DNA of 17,434 nt, from IMG/VR virus record IMGVR_UViG_2671180606_000003, positions 1 to 17,434 of that record. One strand, given 5' to 3'. The DNA is from a virus (lineage: Duplodnaviria > Heunggongvirae > Uroviricota > Caudoviricetes). The position numbers and the translations under genes are program-made. Positions 3,081-16,400 of the stretch are shown here, one piece after another. The notes beneath the pieces are model-generated. The model worked only from the letters and a program-made list of their open reading frames with translations. It was not told the DNA's origin and did not search any database. Each line of letters starts with the position of its first letter. Within the stretch, counting starts at the first letter, position 1.

Positions 3081-3562
3081 GACAGCAGCCCTCCCACCGT
3101 TTTACTGATATCACTTAAGGCAGATGTTGCCGTGTCCTGCAGATTATTCAGTTGCGTACTGAGATCACCGAACATATCGGACAGGGATTCATCCACCCGT
3201 TTGAGCGACAGGGTGAACTCAATCCGCCGCGGCATACCGTCGCGGAAAAACTCCGTTTTAGTCAGATTCAGTCCCTCAATCACATACATGCCGTAAATCG
3301 TGCCGCTGCCTTCAATCAGGGGCCATGCTTTTCCCTGTTCTGCCATCTGCTCCAGAGCCAGCAACGACAGCCTGCCGCCCGTTATCTCCGGCATAAGAAC
3401 ACCAGAAAGCGTCAGCATGTCGTTGTCCGGTCCCAGAAACTGCGTGGACGGACGACGGTTTACCCGGCTGTTTGCCGCATGTCGCCAGCTGCGTTGATAC
3501 TGCAGTTCCTGATACGGAACGGTGCGCAGCATAAACACGTACAATCCCAGCACCATCATCAT
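3077..3562 (-). CDS. U: P2-family tail protein U (gpU)
   Basis: 161-aa ORF between the tape-measure remnant and D, the P2 order T-U-D-ogr; size matches gpU (approx. 159 aa). Confidence 0.85.
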   Translation of the reverse strand: MMMVLGLYVFMLRTVPYQELQYQRSWRHAANSRVNRRPSTQFLGPDNDMLTLSGVLMPEITGGRLSLLALEQMAEQGKAWPLIEGSGTIYGMYVIEGLNLTKTEFFRDGMPRRIEFTLSLKRVDESLSDMFGDLSTQLNNLQDTATSALSDISKTVGGLLS

Positions 3563-4479
3563 GCGTCGTATCCCCCCTGATCGCTGTAGTTACTCCTGGC
3601 TTTTGCCTTCAGCCTGCGTTCACGTTCATCAAGCTGGCGTGCCACCTCCCGCGCAATATCCTGCGCACTTTGTCCTGGCTGCATCTGAATGATGATCTGC
3701 GTCGGTGCCTCAATCCTGTAAACGGGCGGCACAGTGGCTGCACGACTCACCATCGCTTCGCCGCCTTTCGCGGGAAGTGCCAAAGGATGCAACGGTGGAA
3801 GCTCTGCAGGCGCGGCAGCAACGCCCATCATTCCGGCAACAACGGCAGCCAGTGCAGCTGTATTTCTCCGGCTGGTCACATTTGCCGGGCCGTTAACAAT
3901 TTCCGGCCCGTTTTCACCGACGATGCCAAACTGCCCGCGCGGGATATAGCCGCCGCTGTCATACATCCCCGCAAAGCCATATCCCCATGACGGAAAACCA
4001 CCCGATGGCATCATCACTTTACCGTTTGTATTCACCGTCGCAGGTTGCTGACGCGTCACACTTTCCGGTAGTTTCGCCTTTGCGGCCTCTTTACTGACAA
4101 CGCCGAGTTTCTCCAGCAACCAGGAAACGCCGGATTTCAGGGAGTCCAGCGGATGCATGACCATATTCAGCCCTTCCGCCAGTGCCTCCCCGAATCGCCG
4201 CCCCATTGCCGCTGCACTCTGCAGTTCGGCAGAGGTTGACTTAACGGGCGTCAGCAGATCAGTAAACCAGCCCCACAGCGCCTGTACTTTGTCGCCAATC
4301 CACTGGAACACGGGCTTAAGCGGTTCGAATGCTGCACTGACGGGACCTGCCGCCGCTTTGAATCCTTCCACCACGCCACCAAGAAATGCGGTGATGGGTT
4401 GCCAGTATTTCCAGACAACCAGCGCCACGCCCGCCAGTGCAGTAACCACAAGACCTATCGGACTGAGCAGAGCACCTAC
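3559..4479 (-). pseudogene. T: Tail tape-measure protein (gpT), C-terminal fragment only
   Basis: Open frame of approx. 300 codons directly upstream of U, Gly/Ala-rich tape-measure-like C-terminus. P2 gpT is approx. 815 aa, but here the frame is closed by an in-frame stop at 4480-4482 and abuts an opposite-strand gene, so the N-terminal two-thirds are deleted. Confidence 0.7.
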
Positions 4480-4501
4480 CTACTGGTTTGTGCAATACGG
4501 C

Positions 4502-5092
4502 ATGACTACACAGCCGTATCAGTTCACGAAAGGCAGCATTTTTCACCTGATGGAACCGGATATCAACCAGGAGATCTACGGCCTGCCCGGTTATCTTTCT
4601 GCCATTCCGTCAGCCCTGCTCAACGAGTCCGCCACGCTGTTCCGCCGCAAGTATTACATTAACGGCAGCCACGCAGGCTTCATCATGTACATGACCGACG
4701 CCGCGCAGAATCAGGAGGATGTGAACAACCTCCGCAACGCGATGAAAAGCGCCAAAGGTCCAGGCAACTTCCGCAACCTGTTTATGTACTCACCTAACGG
4801 CAAAAAAGACGGGCTTCAGATCATCCCATTGTCAGAAGTCGCGGCGAAGGATGAATTTCTTAACATCAAGAACGTGAGTCGGGATGACATGATGGCAGCG
4901 CACCGCGTGCCGCCGCAAATGATGGGGATTATGCCGAATAATGTTGGGGGGTTTGGGGATGTGGAAAAGGCAAGCCGTGTATTCGTCCGAAATGAGCTAA
5001 TGCCACTACAAAAGCGATTACAGGAGATGAATGATTGGCTTGGCAAGGAGGCGATACAGTTTAATACCTACTCACTAGATATAGTCCCATAA
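4502..5092 (+). pseudogene. Q: Probable portal protein (gpQ-like) C-terminal fragment
   Basis: First in-frame ATG after the deletion junction; the upstream part of the six-frame ORF (4157-4501) is antisense to the tape-measure remnant. Strand and position (C-terminus pointing toward the cos-side region) fit P2 gene Q; the translation has a phage-portal-like flavour, unverified. Confidence 0.45.
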
Positions 5093-5126: not shown

Positions 5127-5867
5127 TTACTCAATAGGTTCAAACTCATCCTGAGGAATCAGCGTCGATTGACAGGCTTGGCTTAGTACTCCTGATAATT
5201 TACATAATAACCGATAGTTATGAGGAGCATCATCGCTAATCTTTTCGACCGTTAAAGTGATTGATTTTGGATCATCCAATAACATCTTCTTGATATCATT
5301 ACTTAAATACCTAGGGCAGTAACCAACGATTTCAGCTGGTTTATCTGCACGAACGACAACAGCATCCCCATCGTATTCATTTTGAAGATCCAAGCAAAGA
5401 CGCAAAATTTGCCCCGGTTTCAATTCAGATACACGAGCATTAGCTAAGCTATTTAAGTAACCAAGTCCATGTAAGAAGAAAAAATGCTCAAAGTTACCAT
5501 CAGAATCAACATCAATTTTTTTGAAAATCTGCAGCTGATCAGTGCTTCGTAAGCCTCCCGAGCGAGCAAGAATATCGATAGGATTTACCTTATCTTCTTC
5601 AAATCCAAGCCATTTAATGAAACTCGGATACTCTGGACGTCTCGGTGATAAAAGGCGATTTTTAAAAAGAGGAAACAATTCTTCCGAAACATAAGTTTCA
5701 CGAACATCACTCATGCCGCTAAACTTTGTAAATTTAGTAGATTTAAGAGCACCTTTGGTATACCTGAAAACATACCCCGATTTGCGCTCTTGCAAGTTAC
5801 CAACAACATGCCAGTCTCTGGTATCTGGTGCCTGCCATGCGACGTAAACGGAGTTTGTATTAGTCAT
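5127..5867 (-). CDS. HipA-N-terminal-like (HipS-like) module fused to a C-terminal HIRAN domain (246 aa)
   Basis: Start overlaps the kinase stop in an ATGA. The N-terminal approx. 110 aa (VYVAWQ...VVGNL...YVFRY...LFPLFKNRLLSP...IDILARSGGLRS) resemble the HipA N-terminal subdomain / HipS. The C-terminal approx. 110 aa (HGLGYLNS...LKPGQILRLCLDLQNEYDGDAVVVRADKPAEIVGYCPRYLSNDIKKMLLDD...ITLTVEKI) match the HIRAN pattern as in the HLTF N-terminus. Confidence 0.8.
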   Translation of the reverse strand: MTNTNSVYVAWQAPDTRDWHVVGNLQERKSGYVFRYTKGALKSTKFTKFSGMSDVRETYVSEELFPLFKNRLLSPRRPEYPSFIKWLGFEEDKVNPIDILARSGGLRSTDQLQIFKKIDVDSDGNFEHFFFLHGLGYLNSLANARVSELKPGQILRLCLDLQNEYDGDAVVVRADKPAEIVGYCPRYLSNDIKKMLLDDPKSITLTVEKISDDAPHNYRLLCKLSGVLSQACQSTLIPQDEFEPIE

Positions 5868-6778
5868 TCTAGTAACCTTCTGCGATTTTCCATTACCATT
5901 AACGTTGCAAATCTACGTGCACTGTCGGATATACACGATGAAGGCACTTGGTTAAACACATCTGTAATGGAATCTTCTGTTAAAACGCTCAACTTACCTA
6001 ACCAATGGTCGCGAGCGGCAACTCTCCCTTCAACTGCATGTTGAAATGCTTCAACGGTCAGCAAGGGCTTTTTATCAGTTTTTGCTTTGAATAGCTCAGA
6101 GCGAGCTTTTCTTACAAAACATGGGATTTGTCGATTTTTATCTTTAGTATTAAGCCGTTCGTTACGCTCATCATCTAACATCTCCCTTCCTAAACTAGCG
6201 GCATGATCGTATGTTGGACACAAAAACTGCTCACCAGTTTCATTGTTAAGCATGATCGCCCAATTTTCATGATGGCGATCTTGATTACTCACAAGTGCAT
6301 CGAGCATCAAATATCCACAAAATACATCTGCTGCATTTAGCCCGGTTAGATCATATACACTCGGAGGAGGCTTGATAGATTCCCTATCCAAACAACCCAA
6401 TACCCTTGTGACAGTGTGTTCTCTGACCCTTACCGGCTTTTCCCCGGCTTGTAAAGGCCCAGGATAATCGAATGTCGAACTGTGAAGCACTTCATTTCCC
6501 ATTACCATCCGGAAACCAGATGGAATGATATTCTGAGTCACCACACCGAATCGACCATTGTATCGCGCCAAATCATAGCTAGCATGTGGAATGTTAAGCA
6601 AATGACATAACTCAGCAGCACACTTTTCAGACCAATGCTCGCCAGTACCTGGCCTAGAGTACTTAAACAACTGCAAATTTACAGTGTCATCGGAGAAATA
6701 GAACCAAAACTTCTCTTTGGTTCCTAACTGTTCAAGATCGTTAGCTACGGGGCTAAGCTCTACCAATTGGTATGGCAT
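5864..6778 (-). CDS. HipA-family (HipT/CtkA-like) Ser/Thr kinase core domain (304 aa)
   Basis: P-loop-like 'GTKEKFW' (compare HipA 'GAQEKTAL') and catalytic-loop 'LVSNQDRHHENWAIM' (compare HipA 'IGATDGHAKNFSV'); lacks the HipA N-terminal subdomain. RBS-like 'aggga' 7 nt upstream of the ATG. AT-rich relative to the phage backbone. Confidence 0.85.
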   Translation of the reverse strand: MPYQLVELSPVANDLEQLGTKEKFWFYFSDDTVNLQLFKYSRPGTGEHWSEKCAAELCHLLNIPHASYDLARYNGRFGVVTQNIIPSGFRMVMGNEVLHSSTFDYPGPLQAGEKPVRVREHTVTRVLGCLDRESIKPPPSVYDLTGLNAADVFCGYLMLDALVSNQDRHHENWAIMLNNETGEQFLCPTYDHAASLGREMLDDERNERLNTKDKNRQIPCFVRKARSELFKAKTDKKPLLTVEAFQHAVEGRVAARDHWLGKLSVLTEDSITDVFNQVPSSCISDSARRFATLMVMENRRRLLE

Positions 6779-6937
6779 CTGACATCCCTGTTTAGCGGAT
6801 TATGAATAAGTTAGGTTCCATTTTATCCAAACATTGTCAAATACTCTAAGATTTATTAGATGATAGAGCGATACTGTATGCATGTCCAGCAATCAAATCA
6901 ATATATAACTCTTATATGACTTAGCGCGCGCTCGTAT

Positions 6938-6956
6938 CCCCGCCACGCCTGCCCGC
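6938..6956 (-). other. Possible degenerate cos-site remnant
   Basis: The minus strand reads 'GGCGTGGCGGGGATACGAG'; the first 12 nt equal the start of the 19-nt 186 cohesive end as I recall it (GGCGTGGCGGGGAAAGCAT), about 15/19 overall. Relies on a remembered cos sequence. Confidence 0.3.
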
Positions 6957-7386
6957 TTTGTGTAGTGGTTTTCATGCAGTTGCATAACATAAGCAAAAGC
7001 CCGTCAGAACTGGCAGGCTTCGACATAAACGATCCACTAGCGATCATTCATTTTCATGCAGCATAGGTATGCACCAGAGTTACTTTGAGGTGCAATGGAT
7101 GATACCTACAGATTTGCTACCCAAGGTCATGCTGAAAATCTATCGCATCTGTATGATGCCGCGGACATAGCGAAATCTCCCCATGCAGTGACAAACTACT
7201 TGAGTAAATACTGTTGTGTTACCACAAGAAGAGATTTCAAAAGGAAAACAACGCTATGTTATCTAGTACATATAGCTATAAATGTCTTAATTTTAGCCAA
7301 TACATTGAATTAAATGAAAAAATACTTTAGTTTGTATACTATTTTTTAGCGTTCAAGATTATGCAATTTTTTGGAGAGAACTATAA

Positions 7387-8355
7387 GTGGGATCTTTCAG
7401 TTTACTTGCATCACGACCAATACCAACTGTGCTAGAAACAAGACAGTTTAACTCAGTTAACGGCAGTGACGCCGAATCTTATGCAATGAGTCAATTCATT
7501 CTTGCTTGTAGAGGAGAGGGGCACTGGGGTTCCAGGGAAGACGACAATTCAAAAATAGATTTAATATTATCCTTCGAACATCCATGGGCATCAAAAGAAA
7601 GAATGCTTATATTGTCGCAAGTTAAATCAGGGGCAACTTATGGTCATTTATTAGAGAAAGGTTTTGTATTAAATTCGGCCGCAAAAAAAGCAGCCAAAAG
7701 GACAACTCACCATATATGTGTCGTTTGGGTTGACAGAACTAATCGTAAAGCATTTTGGGCCTATATACATCCAAACACTACCCTTAAAAACCAAACTTAT
7801 GGAGAATATCACTTAATCACTCCGGCTACACGGTTTGACCTGGCTCGCTGTATGTCCATGGTACGTGCAGGTGAAACTGGAGCAAAAGGAATCCATGTAA
7901 GAAGAAGAAACTCACTACTTAATAATCGGCGAGCGTTTGTTAAAAAACGTTATTCTGAACAGAAAGAAATCACATCTCCGGTGCTTGGGAAAATCGAGCT
8001 TACACGGCTGGGTTGGAGACATATGTTCAGAAAGAGTCGCAGAGAAGAAAACAAAGCAACGAGTTTGGACATTATTCCCTACTTGAGAAATTTACTAGTT
8101 CGGTTTCCTTCAACTCATGCTATTACTTCTTCTGATGTCCGTGATTACGGCTGTTTTACTTACCAAAGAAGAGAGCACTTATTGAAATTTAATAATCTAG
8201 AGGTTACTTATGCCAAAGGAGAGGGAAAAAATAAAGTATGTGCTTATATTCGTGTTATAGAAGAAATAAGGTATCCAAAAGATTGGACTAACGCGGTAAT
8301 GCTATCACAGCAGGTTGAAAGACGAGTGGTTTTGAAGTCAGCATATTATAAATAA
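7387..8355 (+). CDS. Hypothetical cargo protein (322 aa), possibly a PD-(D/E)xK-like nuclease fold
   Basis: GTG start 9 nt downstream of 'GGAGAG'. AT-rich. The N-terminal region carries 'KIDLILSFEH...SQVKSG', compatible with a D...E...(Q/E)xK restriction-endonuclease-like motif; the C-terminus is basic. Domain assignment is weak. Confidence 0.65.
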   Translation: MGSFSLLASRPIPTVLETRQFNSVNGSDAESYAMSQFILACRGEGHWGSREDDNSKIDLILSFEHPWASKERMLILSQVKSGATYGHLLEKGFVLNSAAKKAAKRTTHHICVVWVDRTNRKAFWAYIHPNTTLKNQTYGEYHLITPATRFDLARCMSMVRAGETGAKGIHVRRRNSLLNNRRAFVKKRYSEQKEITSPVLGKIELTRLGWRHMFRKSRREENKATSLDIIPYLRNLLVRFPSTHAITSSDVRDYGCFTYQRREHLLKFNNLEVTYAKGEGKNKVCAYIRVIEEIRYPKDWTNAVMLSQQVERRVVLKSAYYK

Positions 8356-8940
8356 CGAGGCCGTTGGGAAGCCAGCACTTGCGCCCATGCTCTGCCAGAT
8401 TCCGGTTTCGAATCGGTTCTCTGGCAATAATGCGGATAGCGTACTGGGCATCAGCCTTAGCTTTTGCACTCAACCCAACGACCAAGTGGTGAAGCATACT
8501 AGTAAAGAAACTTTAATTCTAGATGTTTTGAAGCAATTCTCACATCAAGTATTAATTTTTCTAAAGCAATGACCTAATGGTATGTCAGGTTTCAACGAAA
8601 ATTGGCAACCAATCTAGATAACTGTACCTTTTCAAAAAACTGGTGCGTATCGTTAGTCTCCTTTCGCCGTTGTTCCAGTCTGGTCGCTTCAATAAAAAGC
8701 AAGGCCGCCGTACAGCGAAACTATATAATCATAGCTTAAGCCAAATCACTCATCTAAGGTGTGGCTCCATTAGTAGTTTGAGCGCTAACAGCCCCTCTGG
8801 CGATAAAACTACTCAATACCTGGCACGAAACAAAATCTGGAAGTTACTATTTTTTTGCCCATGACTAACGCCTCGCATGGCTCGTTGATCAACCTTGCTA
8901 GCGTCAGAATCAAGTCCTAACGCCAGCAACGTTCCTAAGC

Positions 8941-9129
8941 CTAACCGGGGAGATCCATTGAACGGTTGTACTCATGAGTACGGATTTTCGCCATTAACTC
9001 ATCGGTCAGCTCCGAAACCCACTGGATAGCAAGCCGCTTCTCTTCATCATCGCACTCACTAGCCGCTACAAGCTTAAGAAAAAAATCAATGCGCTGGAGC
9101 TTCAAAGACTCCAAAAAATAGTCCTGCAT
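8941..9129 (-). CDS. Small protein (62 aa) downstream of a LexA-box promoter; candidate SOS-inducible antirepressor-type gene
   Basis: Strong RBS (minus strand 'TAGGAGGAAAG' then ATG) and a LexA-box promoter about 50 nt upstream; lies between gene A and the cos-side region, where 186 carries its LexA-controlled tum operon. Confidence 0.6.
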   Translation of the reverse strand: MQDYFLESLKLQRIDFFLKLVAASECDDEEKRLAIQWVSELTDELMAKIRTHEYNRSMDLPG

Positions 9130-9171
9130 CTTTCCTCCTATGACACCACACGCAATACTGTATGTATAACC

Positions 9172-9214
9172 ACTGTTTATATTTACAGTATATAATAATC
9201 TTACTGATGTAAAA
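9172..9214 (-). promoter_or_regulatory. SOS (LexA) box overlapping a sigma70-like promoter
   Basis: 'aCTGTttatatttACAGta' (9172-9189) fits the CTGT-N8-ACAG LexA consensus. Minus-strand -35 'TTTTAC' (9214-9209) and -10 'TATACT' (9192-9187), spacer 16, with the box overlapping the -10. Confidence 0.6.
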
Positions 9215-9283
9215 CGTTTTTTTTACGCTTATCAGCCTGATATGCCTGGTATTATTAAGAGCACGAATTGTTAACCCGCGTAA

Positions 9284-11698
9284 TTAATACAGGTTCCGCC
9301 ACTTATCATCTTCCTGCAAACGCTGGTTCCGATAGAAGATACGCAGGCCTGCTCCTGACGGAATACTGCCGCCACGAAGGAGTAAATCGACCTCTTTCTC
9401 GCTGCCATCAAATCCTCTGGACTTCAGTTCATAGACGAGCTGCTGTCGCTGATGGTCTGTAATTCGCTGTTTGTAGTCTTTACGCCGTTTCGGTTTCACC
9501 AGGCGTAACCTTGCAGCCAGTTCCCGGCGCTCTTTTTTGCTCATACTGTGCAGGTATTCGTGCAACTCCTTGTCATCCATGCGGGTAATGTCCGTTCTGG
9601 TATCCCCATCAGCTGATTTGTCTTTCCCTTGTTGGTTCAAATTTTCAGCAAGGGGACAGTTATTGCCACGAGTCCAAGGGGCGCAAGCGCCCTGGTCGGC
9701 TGCCGCCTCCTGAACGTCAACGGCTTTACGAACCATTTTCCACTTCACTGCATGAGTGCAGATCTTGCCCTCTGCAATGGGTGACCAGATGCCATAAATA
9801 CGAATACCGTGATCGCCATAGGCGGTCGGCTCTTCGTTGATTTCATAAGCGGTTCTGATGAGGTGATATTTACGGGGAACCAGTACGCCGCCCTGCTTCA
9901 TGATGTAGGTGGCAAAGCAACCAGCATCAGCTGCAGCCAGAATGGCATCAAGGCGCGGGTTATCCAGTACCGGCGCACCTGCTTTTTTGTCACCCTGTTG
10001 CCTTGCCGCCTGACCAGCCAGCAATCGCAGTTCACGGTAAGCCTGACGCCCCGGAATGCCAAAGAAGCGGAATTGCTGAACACGATGCAGAGACGCCCAG
10101 GCATTAACGTATTCAGCGTTATCACGCAGAGATTTACCCGTTTCCTTGCTGATCTCGCCAGCCAGACCACGCCCGTCAATGTTCTTACTGATATATTTCG
10201 CGATGTAGCTTGTCGGCGTTCCTTTACGCGGGTTAATCAACTCAGACTTAAAGCGCGGCCCAGTGTTATTGCCCAGCTCCTCGCGGTCTTCACGGATGGC
10301 AAACTTACGCAGTAATGCAGTGATGGCGCGGCGGTCTTTTTTGCGCATAAAACACAACAGGTGCCAGTGAACTGTACCGTCATGATGCGGCTCAGCCACC
10401 CGCACGCCATACCAGCGCAATCCGGCTTTGTGCATCGCCTTACGAAATGCAGCAAACATGCCGACCAGATAGTCGCTGCTTTGTCTTACCGTCGAGTTTG
10501 TCCAGGTCGGGTTGGGTCTGCCGTTATTGAGCGTGGAATGGAAACGCGACGGACAGGTGATAGTGTAGAAAACGGCGCAGTCACTGCGCATTTCCGCGAT
10601 AAGCTCCAGACCTTTAACACAGGCCATCATCTCATTGCGGCGATGCGCCGGGTTGCTGCTGCTGGCGTTTACCACATCTTCCATATCCAGCGTGTCGCCG
10701 TCTTCGTTCACCAGTTCATGAGAACGGAAAAACTCCAGCGACTTACGGCGCTGCTCACGTTTATGCATCACGGCTTCATAGCTGACATAGGGGGATGCTT
10801 TTTTGCTGACCAGGCAGACAGCACGCAACTGCTCTTCCCGCCATTCGCAACGCATCTTCCATAATTTCCGATACCACCAGTCGGCACACAACATACGCGC
10901 CAGCGAACCCGGAATGAGTTCATAGGGCACGGGTTTACGGCGGTTTCTTTTCCGACGGAGTTGCTCAAACGCAGGCGGAATAACATCCAGACGCAGGGTT
11001 TCCGCTGCCACCTTTTCCCATGTTTTGCGGATTTCTTCTGGCTTAACGTCATCGGTGGCATACAAATCACCACAAGCGGCATCAAGGCACATACTCATAT
11101 GCGCAGCGACAAGGGTAGACAGGCGCTTCACCTGATCCTGACTCATTTCAGGCAGGATAAGCAGGCCATCCAGCCCTTCATGGCTTGCCATAAAGCGAAA
11201 AGAAGTGGATAGCTGACAGTCGCGGACATGCTCCAGTCGTTCCAGACATGGCTTAATCGTCTCACGCAAATAGCGGGAATAAGCCTTTGGCCTGCCCAGG
11301 CTGCTGAAATATTCAATACGTTGCATCAGCGGCTTGCTGATATGGGAAGGCTGGGCGTTGACGTCAGCCAGAATGACCATGTCTGGATTAAAACGCTGCT
11401 GCTCATGCGCCAGCTTTGCCCGGCTAATGAGCTTATCCTGCTCCATTTCGCGCTGGACAGGATCACGGGATTCATTAAAGAAATAACGCTCCCAGACCTG
11501 ATCACTCAGTGCCTCGCGGCGCAGTTGTTCCTGCTCGTTATCGGCAGCGTACAGAGTGATCAGGTTTGAAAGTGCAGAAACCGGCGCAACTTCCGCCGGG
11601 TCCAGATAAGGGTTAATGGCCTTTTTTGGGCTGTTCCATGAGAATGCTGCGGCGACCTCGTTAAAGCCGCTGCAGTTGTTCATATCAGCATGGCTCAT
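9284..11698 (-). CDS. A: P2/186-family replication initiation protein A (rolling-circle nickase)
   Basis: Approx. 804-aa ORF; start placed at the Met whose ATG overlaps the dam stop (ATGA), while the six-frame ORF starts at 11725. Contains the active-site tyrosine motif 'YIAKYISK'; follows dam as in 186-like phages. Confidence 0.88.
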
Positions 11699-12552
11699 GC
11701 ACGCACTCCGTACACGGCGGAACAATCCACGCCACGCGAAGGATCAAATCCTACCCAGCAGCGCGGCCCGGAAACAGCAATGATTTCTGTTGCAGATTTA
11801 CTCTCACCAGCTGCCACGCCGATGCTGCGTTTTGCCTTGATGTAGTGGTGAGTAAAATTGCGATACAGCGAACGGATCAGGGATGTGTCACTGTTAGAAA
11901 TAATGACCGGATATCCTTCTGATGACCGATGTTCAAGAACAGATGCCAGGTGATACTGGTCATCTTCAGTGAAACCATCAGTGTGATAGCCTGAAAACGT
12001 ACCGTCATAAGGCGGATCGCAATACACCACATCCCCCGCGTGCAACATCGCCAGCGTTTCATCGAAGCTGGCGCAGATAAACGTTGCCCGCTGAGCTTTT
12101 ACTGCAAATGCACGAATTTCTTTTTCAGGAAAATACGGATTTTTATAATTACCGTAGGGAATGTTGAAATGCCCGCTCTTGTTATAGCGACATAAACCAC
12201 GGTAACCGTGACGATTGAGATACAGGAAATATATCGCTTTCATGAAATCAGTAATTTCAGTTGAGTAATTAAACTCCTGCCTTATGTTGTAATAATCCAT
12301 CTCCCTGTTTGCGTTCTCAAATAAAACTCTGGCGCGAGATATAAACGATTCACAATCAGCGGCAACCTTTTTATAGAGGTTGATTAAATCAGGATTAATA
12401 TCCGCAACCAGATAGCTGGGATAATCCGTCTCCATCATCACAGCACAGGAACCCGCGAAAGGTTCAACCAGTCGCGGGCCAGCAGGAAGATGTTTTTTCA
12501 GTTCGGACATTATGGCAGTTTTATTTCCCGCCCATTTCAGGATGGTGCTCAT
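11695..12552 (-). CDS. dam: DNA adenine methyltransferase (Dam family)
   Basis: 'ILKWAGNK', 'VEPFAGS' and 'VVYCDPPY' motifs and close overall resemblance to E. coli Dam; start placed at '[11 protein letters not shown]', whose ATG overlaps the upstream TraR stop (the six-frame ORF extends to 12612). Confidence 0.92.
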
Positions 12553-14726: not shown

Positions 14727-15377
14727 TTGTCAAATGGAGAGTTCATCTTGAAGATTAATACAGGTGCAAATACGGGAGGGAGAGAGACCATCAAAAGGCT
14801 GATGACAGCCTATGGTTTCAACACTCAGATAGCGTTGGTTGAACACCTCGAAGCATCAAAAAGCACCATGGCAAACAGGATGTTACGTGATAGCTTCCCT
14901 GCTGACTGGGTTATTCAATGTGCCCTTGAAACAGGTATTTCTCTTCTTTGGCTGACAACGGGCCAAGGGGAAATGTATCCTCAAACAGAAGAAAAAAATA
15001 AGTTCAAAAACGAGAGTTCACCTACAGTTCGCCCCCTTTCAAAGATAGTTATCCCATCAGTAAGGCAGGCAACCATTGAGAACGGAACTCTCGAAGAGAT
15101 GGGGGATGTTTTCCTTGATCAGACTTTGATACCCGGAAAAGCCGAATATTGTTTGTACGTCAAAGCTAACGACGGCAATTACATTGTTGATACATCAACA
15201 AAACAGCTTAGTAACGGAATTTGGCTCATAGACATCGACGGTATGAAAAACATCGTCAAAATTGCGCGCATACCTGGAAACAAAATAGTAGTTAACCAAG
15301 ATGACACGTCATTTGAATGTTCTGTAGATGATGTGGAAGTCGTAGGACGTGCAGTCAAAGTAATCAAGAACCTCTAA
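14727..15377 (+). CDS. cI: CI-like immunity repressor (HTH and C-terminal domain)
   Basis: HTH segment 'NTQIALVEHLEASKSTMANRMLRDSFPADWVIQCALETGISLLWL'; directly upstream of int in the same direction as in 186. The six-frame ORF starts at a TTG; the true start may be internal. Confidence 0.8.
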   Translation: MSNGEFILKINTGANTGGRETIKRLMTAYGFNTQIALVEHLEASKSTMANRMLRDSFPADWVIQCALETGISLLWLTTGQGEMYPQTEEKNKFKNESSPTVRPLSKIVIPSVRQATIENGTLEEMGDVFLDQTLIPGKAEYCLYVKANDGNYIVDTSTKQLSNGIWLIDIDGMKNIVKIARIPGNKIVVNQDDTSFECSVDDVEVVGRAVKVIKNL

Positions 15378-15380
15378 CTT

Positions 15381-16400
15381 ATGACCATAAGAAAACAGCC
15401 GAACGGAAAATGGTTGTGTGAGTGCTATCCCAATGGACGCAATGGTAAGCGCGTGCGTAAGCAATTTGCTACCAAAGGCGAAGCTATTGCATTTGAAAGC
15501 TTCACAATGGAAGAAGTGAACAAAAAACCATGGCTGGGGGAAAAGGAAGATCGGCGACATTTATCAGAATTAATTGAGCTGTGGTATTCCCTGTATGGTC
15601 AAACACTCACAGACCCCAAGCGCCTCATGGCGAAACTTAGTATTATCTGTAATGGTCTAGGCGATCCCATCGCTTCAGAACTGACAGCCGGTGACTTTAC
15701 GAAATACCGCGAAGCACGGTTAAAAGGTGAAGTACGAAATGAAGATGGCACGCTTATGTCGCCCGTTAAGCCCCGCACGGTAAACCTTGAACAGCGCAAT
15801 CTATCATCTGTTTTTGGTACACTGAAAAAGCTGGGCCACTGGTCAGCCCCCAACCCGCTTGCCGGGCTGCCAACATTTAAAATTGCTGAGAGTGAATTGG
15901 CGTTCCTGACCCCGGAAGAAATTAAACGTCTGCTGGATGCCTGTGCTGATTCTCAAAGCTCTAGTCTGCTGACGGTTGCAAAAATATGTCTGGCCACCGG
16001 CGCGAGATGGAGTGAAGCCGAAAACCTGCAGGGCCATCAATTATCAAAATACCGGATCACTTACACCAAAACTAAAGGCAAGAAAAACCGAACCGTACCG
16101 ATATCTCAGGAGCTATATGAAGAACTCCCCAAAAACAGAGGGAAACTATTCACGCCCTGCAGAAAAGCTTTTGAGCGCGCAGTAAAACGAGCCGGTATAG
16201 ACCTGCCTGAAGGCCAGTGCACACACGTGTTGCGCCATACATTCGCCAGTCACTTCATGATGAATGGCGGAAACATATTGGTACTACGCGATATTCTTGG
16301 TCACTCTGATATAAAAATGACGATGGTTTATGCTCATTTTTCGCCAGATCATTTAGAAGATGCTGTAACAAAAAATCCACTGGCTATGTTGGGATACTGA
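15381..16400 (+). CDS. int: Tyrosine integrase, P2/186 Int family
   Basis: 339 aa; 'RNGKRVRKQF', 'LATGARWSEAENL', 'RTVPIS', 'HVLRHTFASHF' and 'MVYAHFSPDHL' align with P2 Int signatures (R, H-x-x-R, Y catalytic residues). Confidence 0.93.
   Translation: MTIRKQPNGKWLCECYPNGRNGKRVRKQFATKGEAIAFESFTMEEVNKKPWLGEKEDRRHLSELIELWYSLYGQTLTDPKRLMAKLSIICNGLGDPIASELTAGDFTKYREARLKGEVRNEDGTLMSPVKPRTVNLEQRNLSSVFGTLKKLGHWSAPNPLAGLPTFKIAESELAFLTPEEIKRLLDACADSQSSSLLTVAKICLATGARWSEAENLQGHQLSKYRITYTKTKGKKNRTVPISQELYEELPKNRGKLFTPCRKAFERAVKRAGIDLPEGQCTHVLRHTFASHFMMNGGNILVLRDILGHSDIKMTMVYAHFSPDHLEDAVTKNPLAMLGY

Follow-up and report, generated by a model that had tools for sequence, protein, structure and literature searches.

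We consider it very probable that the region around a 62-aa open reading frame (ORF), encoded on the minus strand of a 17.4-kb stretch of prophage DNA (17,434 nt, referred to throughout as the window), is the SOS-induction module, running from LexA through TumA to CI, of a Fels-2/186-like P2-family prophage at ssrA. The function that the original prediction for this ORF had hoped for is already established for a near-identical allele in the prophage DuoHS, and the arrangement without dinI that is seen here is a minor architecture of a known antirepressor module. The finding therefore leaves the picture of 186-type induction unchanged. The features on which the argument draws are, in window coordinates:

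1-483, start of the window: smpB
698-1060: tmRNA gene ssrA
8809-8862, minus strand: frameshifted 5' stub, MGKKIVTSRFCFVPGIE and then a stop (17 codons), of the gene that follows dinI in relatives
8891-8933, minus strand: conserved stem-loop directly after the stop codon of the 62-aa ORF, with a 15-bp core at 8895-8929
8941-9129, minus strand: predicted tumA-type antirepressor gene of 62 aa, ATG at 9129 and TAG at 8943-8941
9134-9139, minus strand: Shine-Dalgarno sequence AGGAGG, 4 nt before the ATG
9156-9175, minus strand: putative LexA box 2, CAGTGGTTATACATACAGTA, overlapping box 1 by 5 nt
9171-9190, minus strand: putative LexA box 1, TACTGTAAATATAAACAGTG, overlapping the -10
9185-9192, minus strand: -10 region TATACTGT, read from the sequence and nearly invariant in an alignment of related loci
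9208-9213, minus strand: -35 hexamer TTTACA, read from the sequence, of the predicted tum promoter, the equivalent of 186 p95
9284-11725, minus strand: replication gene A
14727-15377, plus strand: 186-type CI immunity repressor, identified by homology, the presumed target of the 62-aa protein
15381-16400, plus strand: int

The window starts with smpB and ssrA, and these are followed by a P2-family prophage of the Fels-2/186 type, whose left attachment-site sequence matches the first 89 nt of the Fels-2 record. In a search of the whole window against Rfam at the gathering threshold the tmRNA was the sole match, and a search of positions 8300-9300 at E <= 1 gave no match. The minus strand carries, in this order, cII, fil, a DNA methylase gene and replication gene A, and the 62-aa ORF, which has the same orientation as gene A, comes next downstream after a gap of 154 nt, at the start of the right-end accessory region; the 186-type CI gene and int lie upstream of it. 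An order in which gene A is followed by an ORF in the tum position is common to 186, PSP3, Fels-2, SopEPhi, RE2010, Cartapus and DuoHS, and in 186 the equivalent place after gene A is occupied by the SOS operon p95-tum-orf97. The original prediction had placed the ORF at the site of the 186 antirepressor operon, and this is borne out by its position next to gene A on the same strand and by a promoter layout like that of p95. The prophage in the window has suffered an internal deletion, by which approximately 19 kb of morphogenesis and lysis genes are gone: at the junction, 4476/4477, the tape-measure gene is fused to the portal gene, and the equivalent of Fels-2 2910-21942 is missing. As a result of this loss the switch cannot yield phage here; it could derepress early genes, replication and excision, with phage production impossible.

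The predicted ribosome-binding site and ORF were found as originally described, with AGGAGG at 9139-9134, an ATG at 9129 and the stop codon at 8941-8943; AGGAGG or GGAGG is kept in nearly all related loci, in which the ATG is conserved too. The protein belongs to phrog_698, a family of unknown function that comprises about 485 clusters at 90% identity across the Enterobacterales, almost all of them annotated 'hypothetical', and carriers make up about 20% of complete E. coli genomes. An exhaustive profile search of 1.84 billion proteins gave 85 representatives at 50% identity, nearly all of which are 50-100 aa long. The AlphaFold2 model (pLDDT 90) is a hairpin of two helices, 2-23 and 28-58, in the turn of which the invariant Cys26 is located. 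A Foldseek comparison of this model with the PDB returned no match at E <= 0.001 and generic helical hairpins only, a Pfam search gave a noise hit only and no match to the DinI domain (PF06183), and neither PADLOC nor a sequence search of the PDB gave a match for the protein. Over 596 pairs, in which synonymous sites are close to saturated, the median dN/dS of the ORF is 0.075, and in one example pair a synonymous divergence of 0.54 stands against a non-synonymous divergence of 0.013; these substitution patterns show strong purifying selection on the ORF. Gene calls that extend to 87-101 aa, under the name 'levan regulatory domain protein', were rejected as artefacts, because their start codons lie ahead of the promoter, so that the LexA boxes would be translated, and because the upstream region contains non-triplet indels. 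The names 'levan regulatory' and 'DinI' on some homologues stem from over-extended or neighbouring gene calls, and where databases carry the label 'hypothetical' or 'levan regulatory protein', the family can confidently be re-annotated as Tum/TumA antirepressor.

A pairwise BLASTP comparison of the 62-aa protein with 186 Tum gave no alignment, and the protein is no more than 18-19% identical to either 186 Tum or PSP3 TumA. At the level of families, the ORF matches phrog_698 (1e-36), phrog_8554 (8e-8) and phrog_1993 (5e-3), and residues 1-69 of 186 Tum match the same three (6e-6, 3e-12 and 2e-23, respectively). As long as the alignments were shallow (Neff 1.5), hhalign gave a weak match (18.5%, P = 0.0013); once the family had been broadened with distant representatives from the search of 1.84 billion proteins, hhalign aligned it with the 186 Tum N-terminal family, columns 3-44 on 3-44, at 96.6% and E 5e-10. 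In addition, the family HMM matches residues 6-43 of 186 Tum with 30.8 bits, and the family profile matches PSP3 TumA weakly. By these profile matches the 62-aa protein is homologous to the N-terminal, non-DinI half of 186 Tum. The ORF had originally been noted as much shorter than Tum; 62 aa is the normal size of the antirepressor half where tum is split. The idea of a compact novel antirepressor was essentially right as far as a compact antirepressor is concerned, but not as to novelty, as those of Fels-2, PSP3 and DuoHS were already known.

Downstream of the ORF the window departs from most of its relatives. Likeness to dinI-containing phages ends within the final codons of the ORF (about 8950), and from 8939 to about 8818 the DNA matches at about 80% the post-dinI sequence of Cartapus and other phages; a tblastn search with two DinI-type queries found no match or remnant anywhere in the window at E <= 0.01. 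The stem-loop that follows the stop codon has a folding energy of -36.3 kcal/mol (z = -4.1) and is kept in seven dinI-less loci, with compensatory changes in four pairs, and a homologous hairpin follows dinI in the dinI-containing relatives, for example in Cartapus. As there is no U-tract, this hairpin is probably a partial terminator or a stabiliser of the mRNA 3' end. The stretch from 8939 to about 8818 also holds a conserved GAACAACGAG…GAGGCGTTAG motif. The stub at 8809-8862 has its full-length relative in Cartapus gp46 (phrog_2100, 86 aa), and a nucleotide alignment with the gp46 gene contains two 1-nt indels. Near 8818 the homology to phage relatives comes to an end. In 8356-8808 there was no ORF matching a family, no Rfam hit and no phage homologue, and small ORFs of 73, 61 and 45 aa in 8356-8940 had no PHROG match; positions 8356-8808 are the tail of a rare cargo block, which comes with an opposite-strand 322-aa gene of unknown function (7387-8355). 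The approximately 580 bp downstream of the ORF had been described as lacking intact ORFs, and while there are indeed no intact genes in it, the conserved hairpin and the frameshifted stub mean that it is not featureless. The architecture thus reads as a clean deletion of dinI, with the next gene truncated by different cargo.

Among the carriers in complete E. coli genomes, dinI follows the 62-aa gene in 1083 of 1125 (96%) and about 4% are without dinI; an earlier guess from two loci, that a stand-alone tumA is the E. coli norm, was given up because of this count. At the species level, 15 of 35 loci have no DinI within 3 kb. The same 'DLPG-stop-hairpin' junction as in the window is present in an intact, full-length and near-identical prophage of strain 442/2 (NZ_CP076282, 2.903-2.923 Mb), in other E. 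coli, in Lelliottia, in a Klebsiella sp. and in another enterobacterial genome, and in a Citrobacter sp., Pantoea and Erwinia dinI is absent with different junctions. Carriers of the shared junction have diverged by up to 0.54 at synonymous sites and by 1-4% in amino acid sequence. The heavy synonymous divergence indicates that the dinI-less junction is old and has been maintained, and the low amino acid divergence beside it that the gene has been kept by selection long after dinI was lost.

These observations bear on the suggestion, also made in the original prediction, that the tum operon has decayed and that the 62-aa ORF is the functionless leftover first gene of a dying prophage, which we regard as very improbable. 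It is true that dinI is missing although the great majority of E. coli carriers have it, that the next gene is a frameshifted stub, and that the 19-kb deletion joining the tape-measure and portal genes has a junction with no occurrence in 5,426 complete E. coli genomes. However, the ORF, its ribosome-binding site and both LexA boxes are intact, the promoter region differs at 2 nt from the functional one of DuoHS and the protein is 92% identical to the functional DuoHS Tum. Furthermore, the same dinI-less junction is found with its hairpin in an intact prophage and in other genera. As the loss of dinI is clean, shared and old, it represents a viable variant rather than random decay of the copy in the window, and the recurrence of dinI-less versions argues that the 62-aa gene is a working stand-alone module and not debris. 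The existence of natural dinI-less lineages also suggests that the switch can do without the DinI half of Tum.

If the 62-aa protein is an antirepressor, its presumed partner is the cognate 186-type CI that is encoded in the same element; repressors of the 186 type are non-cleavable and have an HTH N-domain and an oligomerising C-domain. This CI is 62% identical to that of Fels-2 and 32% identical to that of 186 over 89% of its length, and its homologue in the near-identical prophage of strain 442/2 is annotated 'phage repressor protein CI'. Phages whose TumA is about 93% identical to that of the window carry CI proteins that are 33%, 41%, 51% and 57% identical to the CI of the window. A near-invariant TumA together with such diverse CI proteins is unexpected for a specific pair, and implies either that TumA recognises a conserved surface on CI or that it has a different or additional target. 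Motifs in both the HTH and the C-terminal domains of CI are conserved across the set, and a conserved docking surface on CI is plausible.

The same pattern, in which a TumA of about 93% identity stands beside CI proteins of 33-57% identity with no co-variation, would also be expected of a small SOS-induced protein with a role other than on CI, be it as a modulator of SOS or RecA, as a toxin or as a regulator of the neighbouring defence cargo. The protein has no Pfam, PADLOC or PDB annotation, its generic helical-hairpin fold has no significant structural neighbour, and a second LexA-like box precedes the nearby PDC-M03 defence candidate. Nevertheless, such a role is very improbable, given the homology to the N-terminal half of Tum, which in 186 is joined to DinI to give an antirepressor. 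Moreover, deletion of the 92% identical gene in DuoHS blocks induction of the prophage but not a host SOS reporter (PMC12055606), and according to its annotation PSP3 tumA is required for UV induction. We therefore retain the reading in which TumA acts on CI: by homology to 186 Tum, for which CI binding has been demonstrated, it would inactivate the repressor, and the same homology suggests that the 62-aa protein would be sufficient for this without DinI.

Expression of the gene would be governed by a promoter whose -10 can be read as TACTGT (9190-9185), 17 nt from the -35 and in agreement with the annotation of 186 p95, or alternatively as TATACT (9192-9187) with a 15-nt spacer. A generic sigma-70 promoter scanner did not call this promoter, since its -10 is weak; the one call that the scanner made, at 8543-8516 on the minus strand, lies ahead of a 69-aa ORF without a family match. 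In an alignment of 43 distinct upstream regions, which represent many genera of Enterobacterales and for which 35 loci from species-representative genomes were collected together with phage and E. coli loci, a common footprint is seen that consists of an A-tract, TTTAC(A), a free 17-nt spacer, TATACTGT-N8-ACAGTG, box 2 and AGGAGG-ATG. The TTTAC(A) of the -35 is kept in nearly all of the 43 regions, and the 17-nt spacer varies.

The near-consensus SOS box that had been noticed over the -10 is indeed present, at 9171-9190. TACTGTAAATATAAACAGTG agrees with the LexA consensus TACTGTATATATATACAGTA at 17/20 positions, it is the sole site in the window with three or fewer mismatches to this consensus, and its core, CTGT-N8-ACAG (9173-9188), occurs once in the 17.4 kb. 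Scoring with a LexA-site matrix had been proposed as a check on this box. With an approximate heterology-index (HI) matrix, for which 23 E. coli operators were used, its HI is about 4.2 (4.1-4.3), the best value in the window, which falls between those of sulA and recA in the same approximate matrix. The original prediction did not include the second, overlapping box at 9156-9175, for which the same matrix gives an approximate HI of 7.3-7.6. A LexA box is present at the equivalent place in 42 of the 43 related upstream regions, and a second box, at a fixed offset of +15 and with an HI below 10, in 30 of them, the loci that lack it being mainly those of Pantoea, Erwinia and Tatumella. The 35-nt double operator is identical at 30/35 positions to the operator of a cloacin-like bacteriocin gene on the ColRNAI plasmid NZ_CP024884 (TACTGTATATAAAACCAGTGGTTATATGTACAGTA), with which the Fels-2 operator shares 32/35 positions. 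It has been shown that double operators of the colicin type bind two LexA dimers, which results in tight repression (PMC2994835). Going by their sequence and spacing, boxes 1 and 2 form such a colicin-type double SOS operator covering the promoter. Loss of LexA is reportedly lethal in Fels-2 lysogens, and a colicin-like double operator suggests a reason both for this lethality of lexA-null mutations and for the tight silence of these prophages. Another LexA-like box was observed ahead of the nearby PDC-M03 defence candidate (kinase/HIRAN, across cos).

That the LexA-box resemblance is a fortuitous product of an AT-rich promoter, with the gene constitutive or controlled by CI, is barely credible: the region is AT-rich and the short CTGT-N8-ACAG pattern turns up in 46 of 200 shuffles of the window, but a full 20-mer match with no more than three mismatches was obtained in 0/200, the box keeps its position in 42/43 divergent loci next to a spacer that is variable, induction of DuoHS, whose operator is identical, is prevented by lexA(Ind-), and the Fels-2 operon is induced by DNA damage. 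LexA control of the tum promoter in the window is predicted from its sequence and from the conservation of these features, and dependence on LexA has been measured for DuoHS and 186.

Taken as an SOS-induction module, the region would work as follows. In the undamaged cell, LexA bound to the double operator over the -10 and the transcription start would silence the 62-aa gene. Upon DNA damage, RecA-stimulated self-cleavage of LexA would free the sigma-70 promoter, and the two-helix protein, a stand-alone TumA form of 186 Tum, would then be made. For these steps, LexA occupancy and cleavage and the production of TumA, the basis is the sequence, its conservation and the experiments with DuoHS and Fels-2. 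TumA would subsequently bind the prophage CI and stop it from binding its operators, and as a consequence the early lytic promoter pR would be derepressed. In the lineage of the window, the transcription unit would consist of the promoter, tumA and the hairpin, the DinI-like half having been cleanly lost.

We also offer, as a tentative extension that we think rather unlikely, the idea that the dinI-less tumA cassette, in which a colicin-type double LexA operator is combined with a 62-aa helical hairpin and with a conserved stem-loop, is a self-sufficient SOS switch of broad specificity, which may cross-induce P2-family prophages and may serve the host. The basis for this is that TumA is about 93% identical while its partner CI proteins diverge to 33-57%, so that a conserved surface of CI may be recognised; a near-invariant TumA with varied CI leaves room for cross-induction between prophages of different immunity. 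If true, co-resident P2-family prophages that differ in immunity would be induced by one another, and the defective prophage of the window may keep the cassette, together with the PDC-M03 unit, as a damage-triggered switch of benefit to the host and not for the sake of making phage.

The closest known counterpart of the predicted module is found in DuoHS, a P2-like prophage of E. coli HS, whose Tum (ECHS_RS04495, WP_001154431.1) is likewise 62 aa long and identical to the protein of the window at 55/60 residues (92%). The two differ at the C-terminal residues, MDV.. in DuoHS and MDLPG in the window. As with the ORF after gene A in the window, DuoHS tum comes immediately after the gene for the replication endonuclease, and there is no difference in the -35, the two LexA boxes, the ribosome-binding site or the ATG, the 2 nt that differ being located between box 2 and the ribosome-binding site. 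However, DuoHS has a DinI-like gene 10 nt downstream of tum, which the window lacks. In DuoHS, an in-frame deletion of tum, the gene deleted being ECHS_RS04495 according to the supplement, or the lexA(Ind-) allele abolishes induction and lysis by mitomycin C (PMC12055606). As dinI was kept in the tum deletion, the case for an antirepressor that suffices without DinI is based on a personal communication on PSP3.

In Fels-2 of Salmonella Typhimurium LT2, which is located at ssrA like the prophage in the window, the corresponding protein STM2728 is also 62 aa long and is 90% identical to that of the window; box 1 is the same and box 2 differs at 2 nt. Fels-2 retains a DinI-family gene, STM2727, that starts 10 nt after STM2728, as well as STM2726, whereas the window has no dinI. 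Exposure to the mutagen MX induces the operon STM2726-2728, and the increase for STM2727 is 5.5- to 14.8-fold (PMC2225428). A pair made up of a gene of the 62-aa type and a DinI gene, as in Fels-2, is present in SopEPhi, RE2010, many Klebsiella phages and Cartapus. It has been reported that tum is split in both Fels-2 and PSP3 and that in PSP3 the antirepressor activity resides in the upstream gene (PMC3121763). The split pair of PSP3, like that of Fels-2, consists of a small upstream gene, tumA (60 aa), and a downstream DinI homologue, tumB, and the PSP3 record describes tumA as 'similar to 5' end 186 tum; UV induction of prophage'. However, PSP3 TumA is only about 19% identical to the protein of the window and belongs to the 186-like branch of sequences.

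With 186 itself, the likeness lies in the promoter and in the N terminus of the protein. The -35 of p95 is TTCACA, and its -10, TACTGT, forms the first six bases of the LexA site, as in the window; the N-terminal 44 residues of 186 Tum are homologous to the 62-aa protein. In contrast, the Tum of 186 carries a fused DinI-like C-terminal domain and is 146 aa long, its promoter p95 contains one LexA box where the window has two, and orf97 is located downstream of tum. According to the annotation of the 186 record, Tum inhibits DNA binding by CI, and the same is stated by a later paper that cites the original work for it (Shearwin et al. 1998, as cited in PMC3121763).

The antirepressors GfoA, GftA and FsoA of the Gifsy and Fels-1 prophages are small and LexA-controlled as well and are encoded in an operon with a dinI homologue, but these are lambdoid phages and the gene order is reversed, with dinI first. 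No sequence kinship is expected between these proteins and that of the window. They act on non-cleavable repressors, also in trans (PMC3121763). Finally, the operators of colicin and cloacin genes likewise contain two LexA boxes that overlap by 5 nt (…ACAGTGG…). Both these and the operator in the window govern a product that is lethal if made by mistake, which in the case of the colicins and cloacins is a bacteriocin and, for the predicted operator described here, a phage antirepressor.

The candidate defence system PDC-M03 looks SOS-regulated, judging from its upstream sequences, because a LexA-like box is conserved in front of PDC-M03A homologues. Besides the two boxes upstream of tumA, the gene for the 62-aa Tum-type antirepressor, the window contains a third LexA-like box, and a gene pair is located approximately 95 nt downstream of it:

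6872-6891: third LexA-like box, TGCTGGACATGCATACAGTA, approximate heterology index 6.9
5127-6778, minus strand: HipA-like kinase and HIRAN gene pair

In PADLOC this pair matched PDC-M03A/B (E-values of 2e-122 and 3e-93). Of 43 distinct regions upstream of PDC-M03A homologues from viral contigs (loci L055-L103), 38 contain a LexA-like box at -110 to -133; it is kept down to 67% protein identity, is missing among these 43 regions only in the group with 56-58% identity and is near-consensus before some homologues, for example TGCTGTATATAAAAACAGTA.

TumA (8941-9129, minus strand) does not co-vary with CI, the 186-type immunity repressor (14727-15377, plus strand) and its inferred target, across the phage records compared. 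In phages in which TumA is approximately 93% identical to that of the window, the identity of their CI to the CI of the window is only 33% in Kp4871-2, 41% in ST437-OXA245phi4.2, 51% in Kp4857-1 and 57% in RE2010. A tandem duplicated HTH segment is also present in Kp4871-2, within the longest ORF that spans the CI match.

The tumA/dinI module has decayed in other species, with tumA damaged in three loci and dinI in four, and therefore both halves of the module are lost repeatedly:

L042 (Siccibacter turicensis): tumA pseudogene, with the LexA box lost too
L035 (Dryocola sp.): tumA with ATA replacing ATG and a frameshift
L039 (Candidatus Pantoea rara): premature stop in tumA
L020, L028 and L043: dinI truncated or frameshifted
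L031: degenerate dinI remnant

In related E. coli prophages, the variable accessory region that comes after gene A and tumA holds a TIR-domain or a GTPase-domain gene; in the window, its place is taken by the following gene:

7387-8355, plus strand: 322-aa ORF, convergent with tumA

This ORF had no match in Pfam, PHROG or PADLOC, and its PGAP version in strain 442/2, the carrier of a near-identical intact dinI-less prophage, is 290 aa long. Together with 8356-8808 it lies in a block with a GC content of 32-45%; among 5,426 complete E. coli genomes, just 4 carry this block.

A clean deletion inside the prophage, at 4476/4477, has fused the tape-measure and portal genes, each broken in its middle:

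3559-4449, minus strand: ORF of the tape-measure C-terminal fragment
4157-5092, plus strand: portal gene fragment

Compared with Fels-2 (its coordinates 2910 to 21942), approximately 19 kb comprising tail, baseplate, lysis, capsid and terminase genes is gone. None of the 5,426 complete E. coli genomes contains the junction, so it stems either from decay specific to this strain or possibly from an error in the assembly.

Between the gene pair and the 322-aa ORF lies a conserved patch that is closed by a hairpin:

about 6995-7085, minus strand: conserved patch, …TATGCTGCATGAAA…GATC…
about 6931-6949, minus strand: intrinsic-terminator-like hairpin, AGCCTGCCAGTTCTGACGGGCTTTT

Just past the hairpin, GGCGTGGCGGGGATACGAG resembles the P2 cos sequence. 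The patch with its hairpin is matched by 24399-24547 of Fels-2, and in Pantoea and Erwinia loci the patch is located directly 3' of tumA. The patch and hairpin (about 6931-7085) are probably the counterpart of t95b, the end-of-operon terminator of 186.
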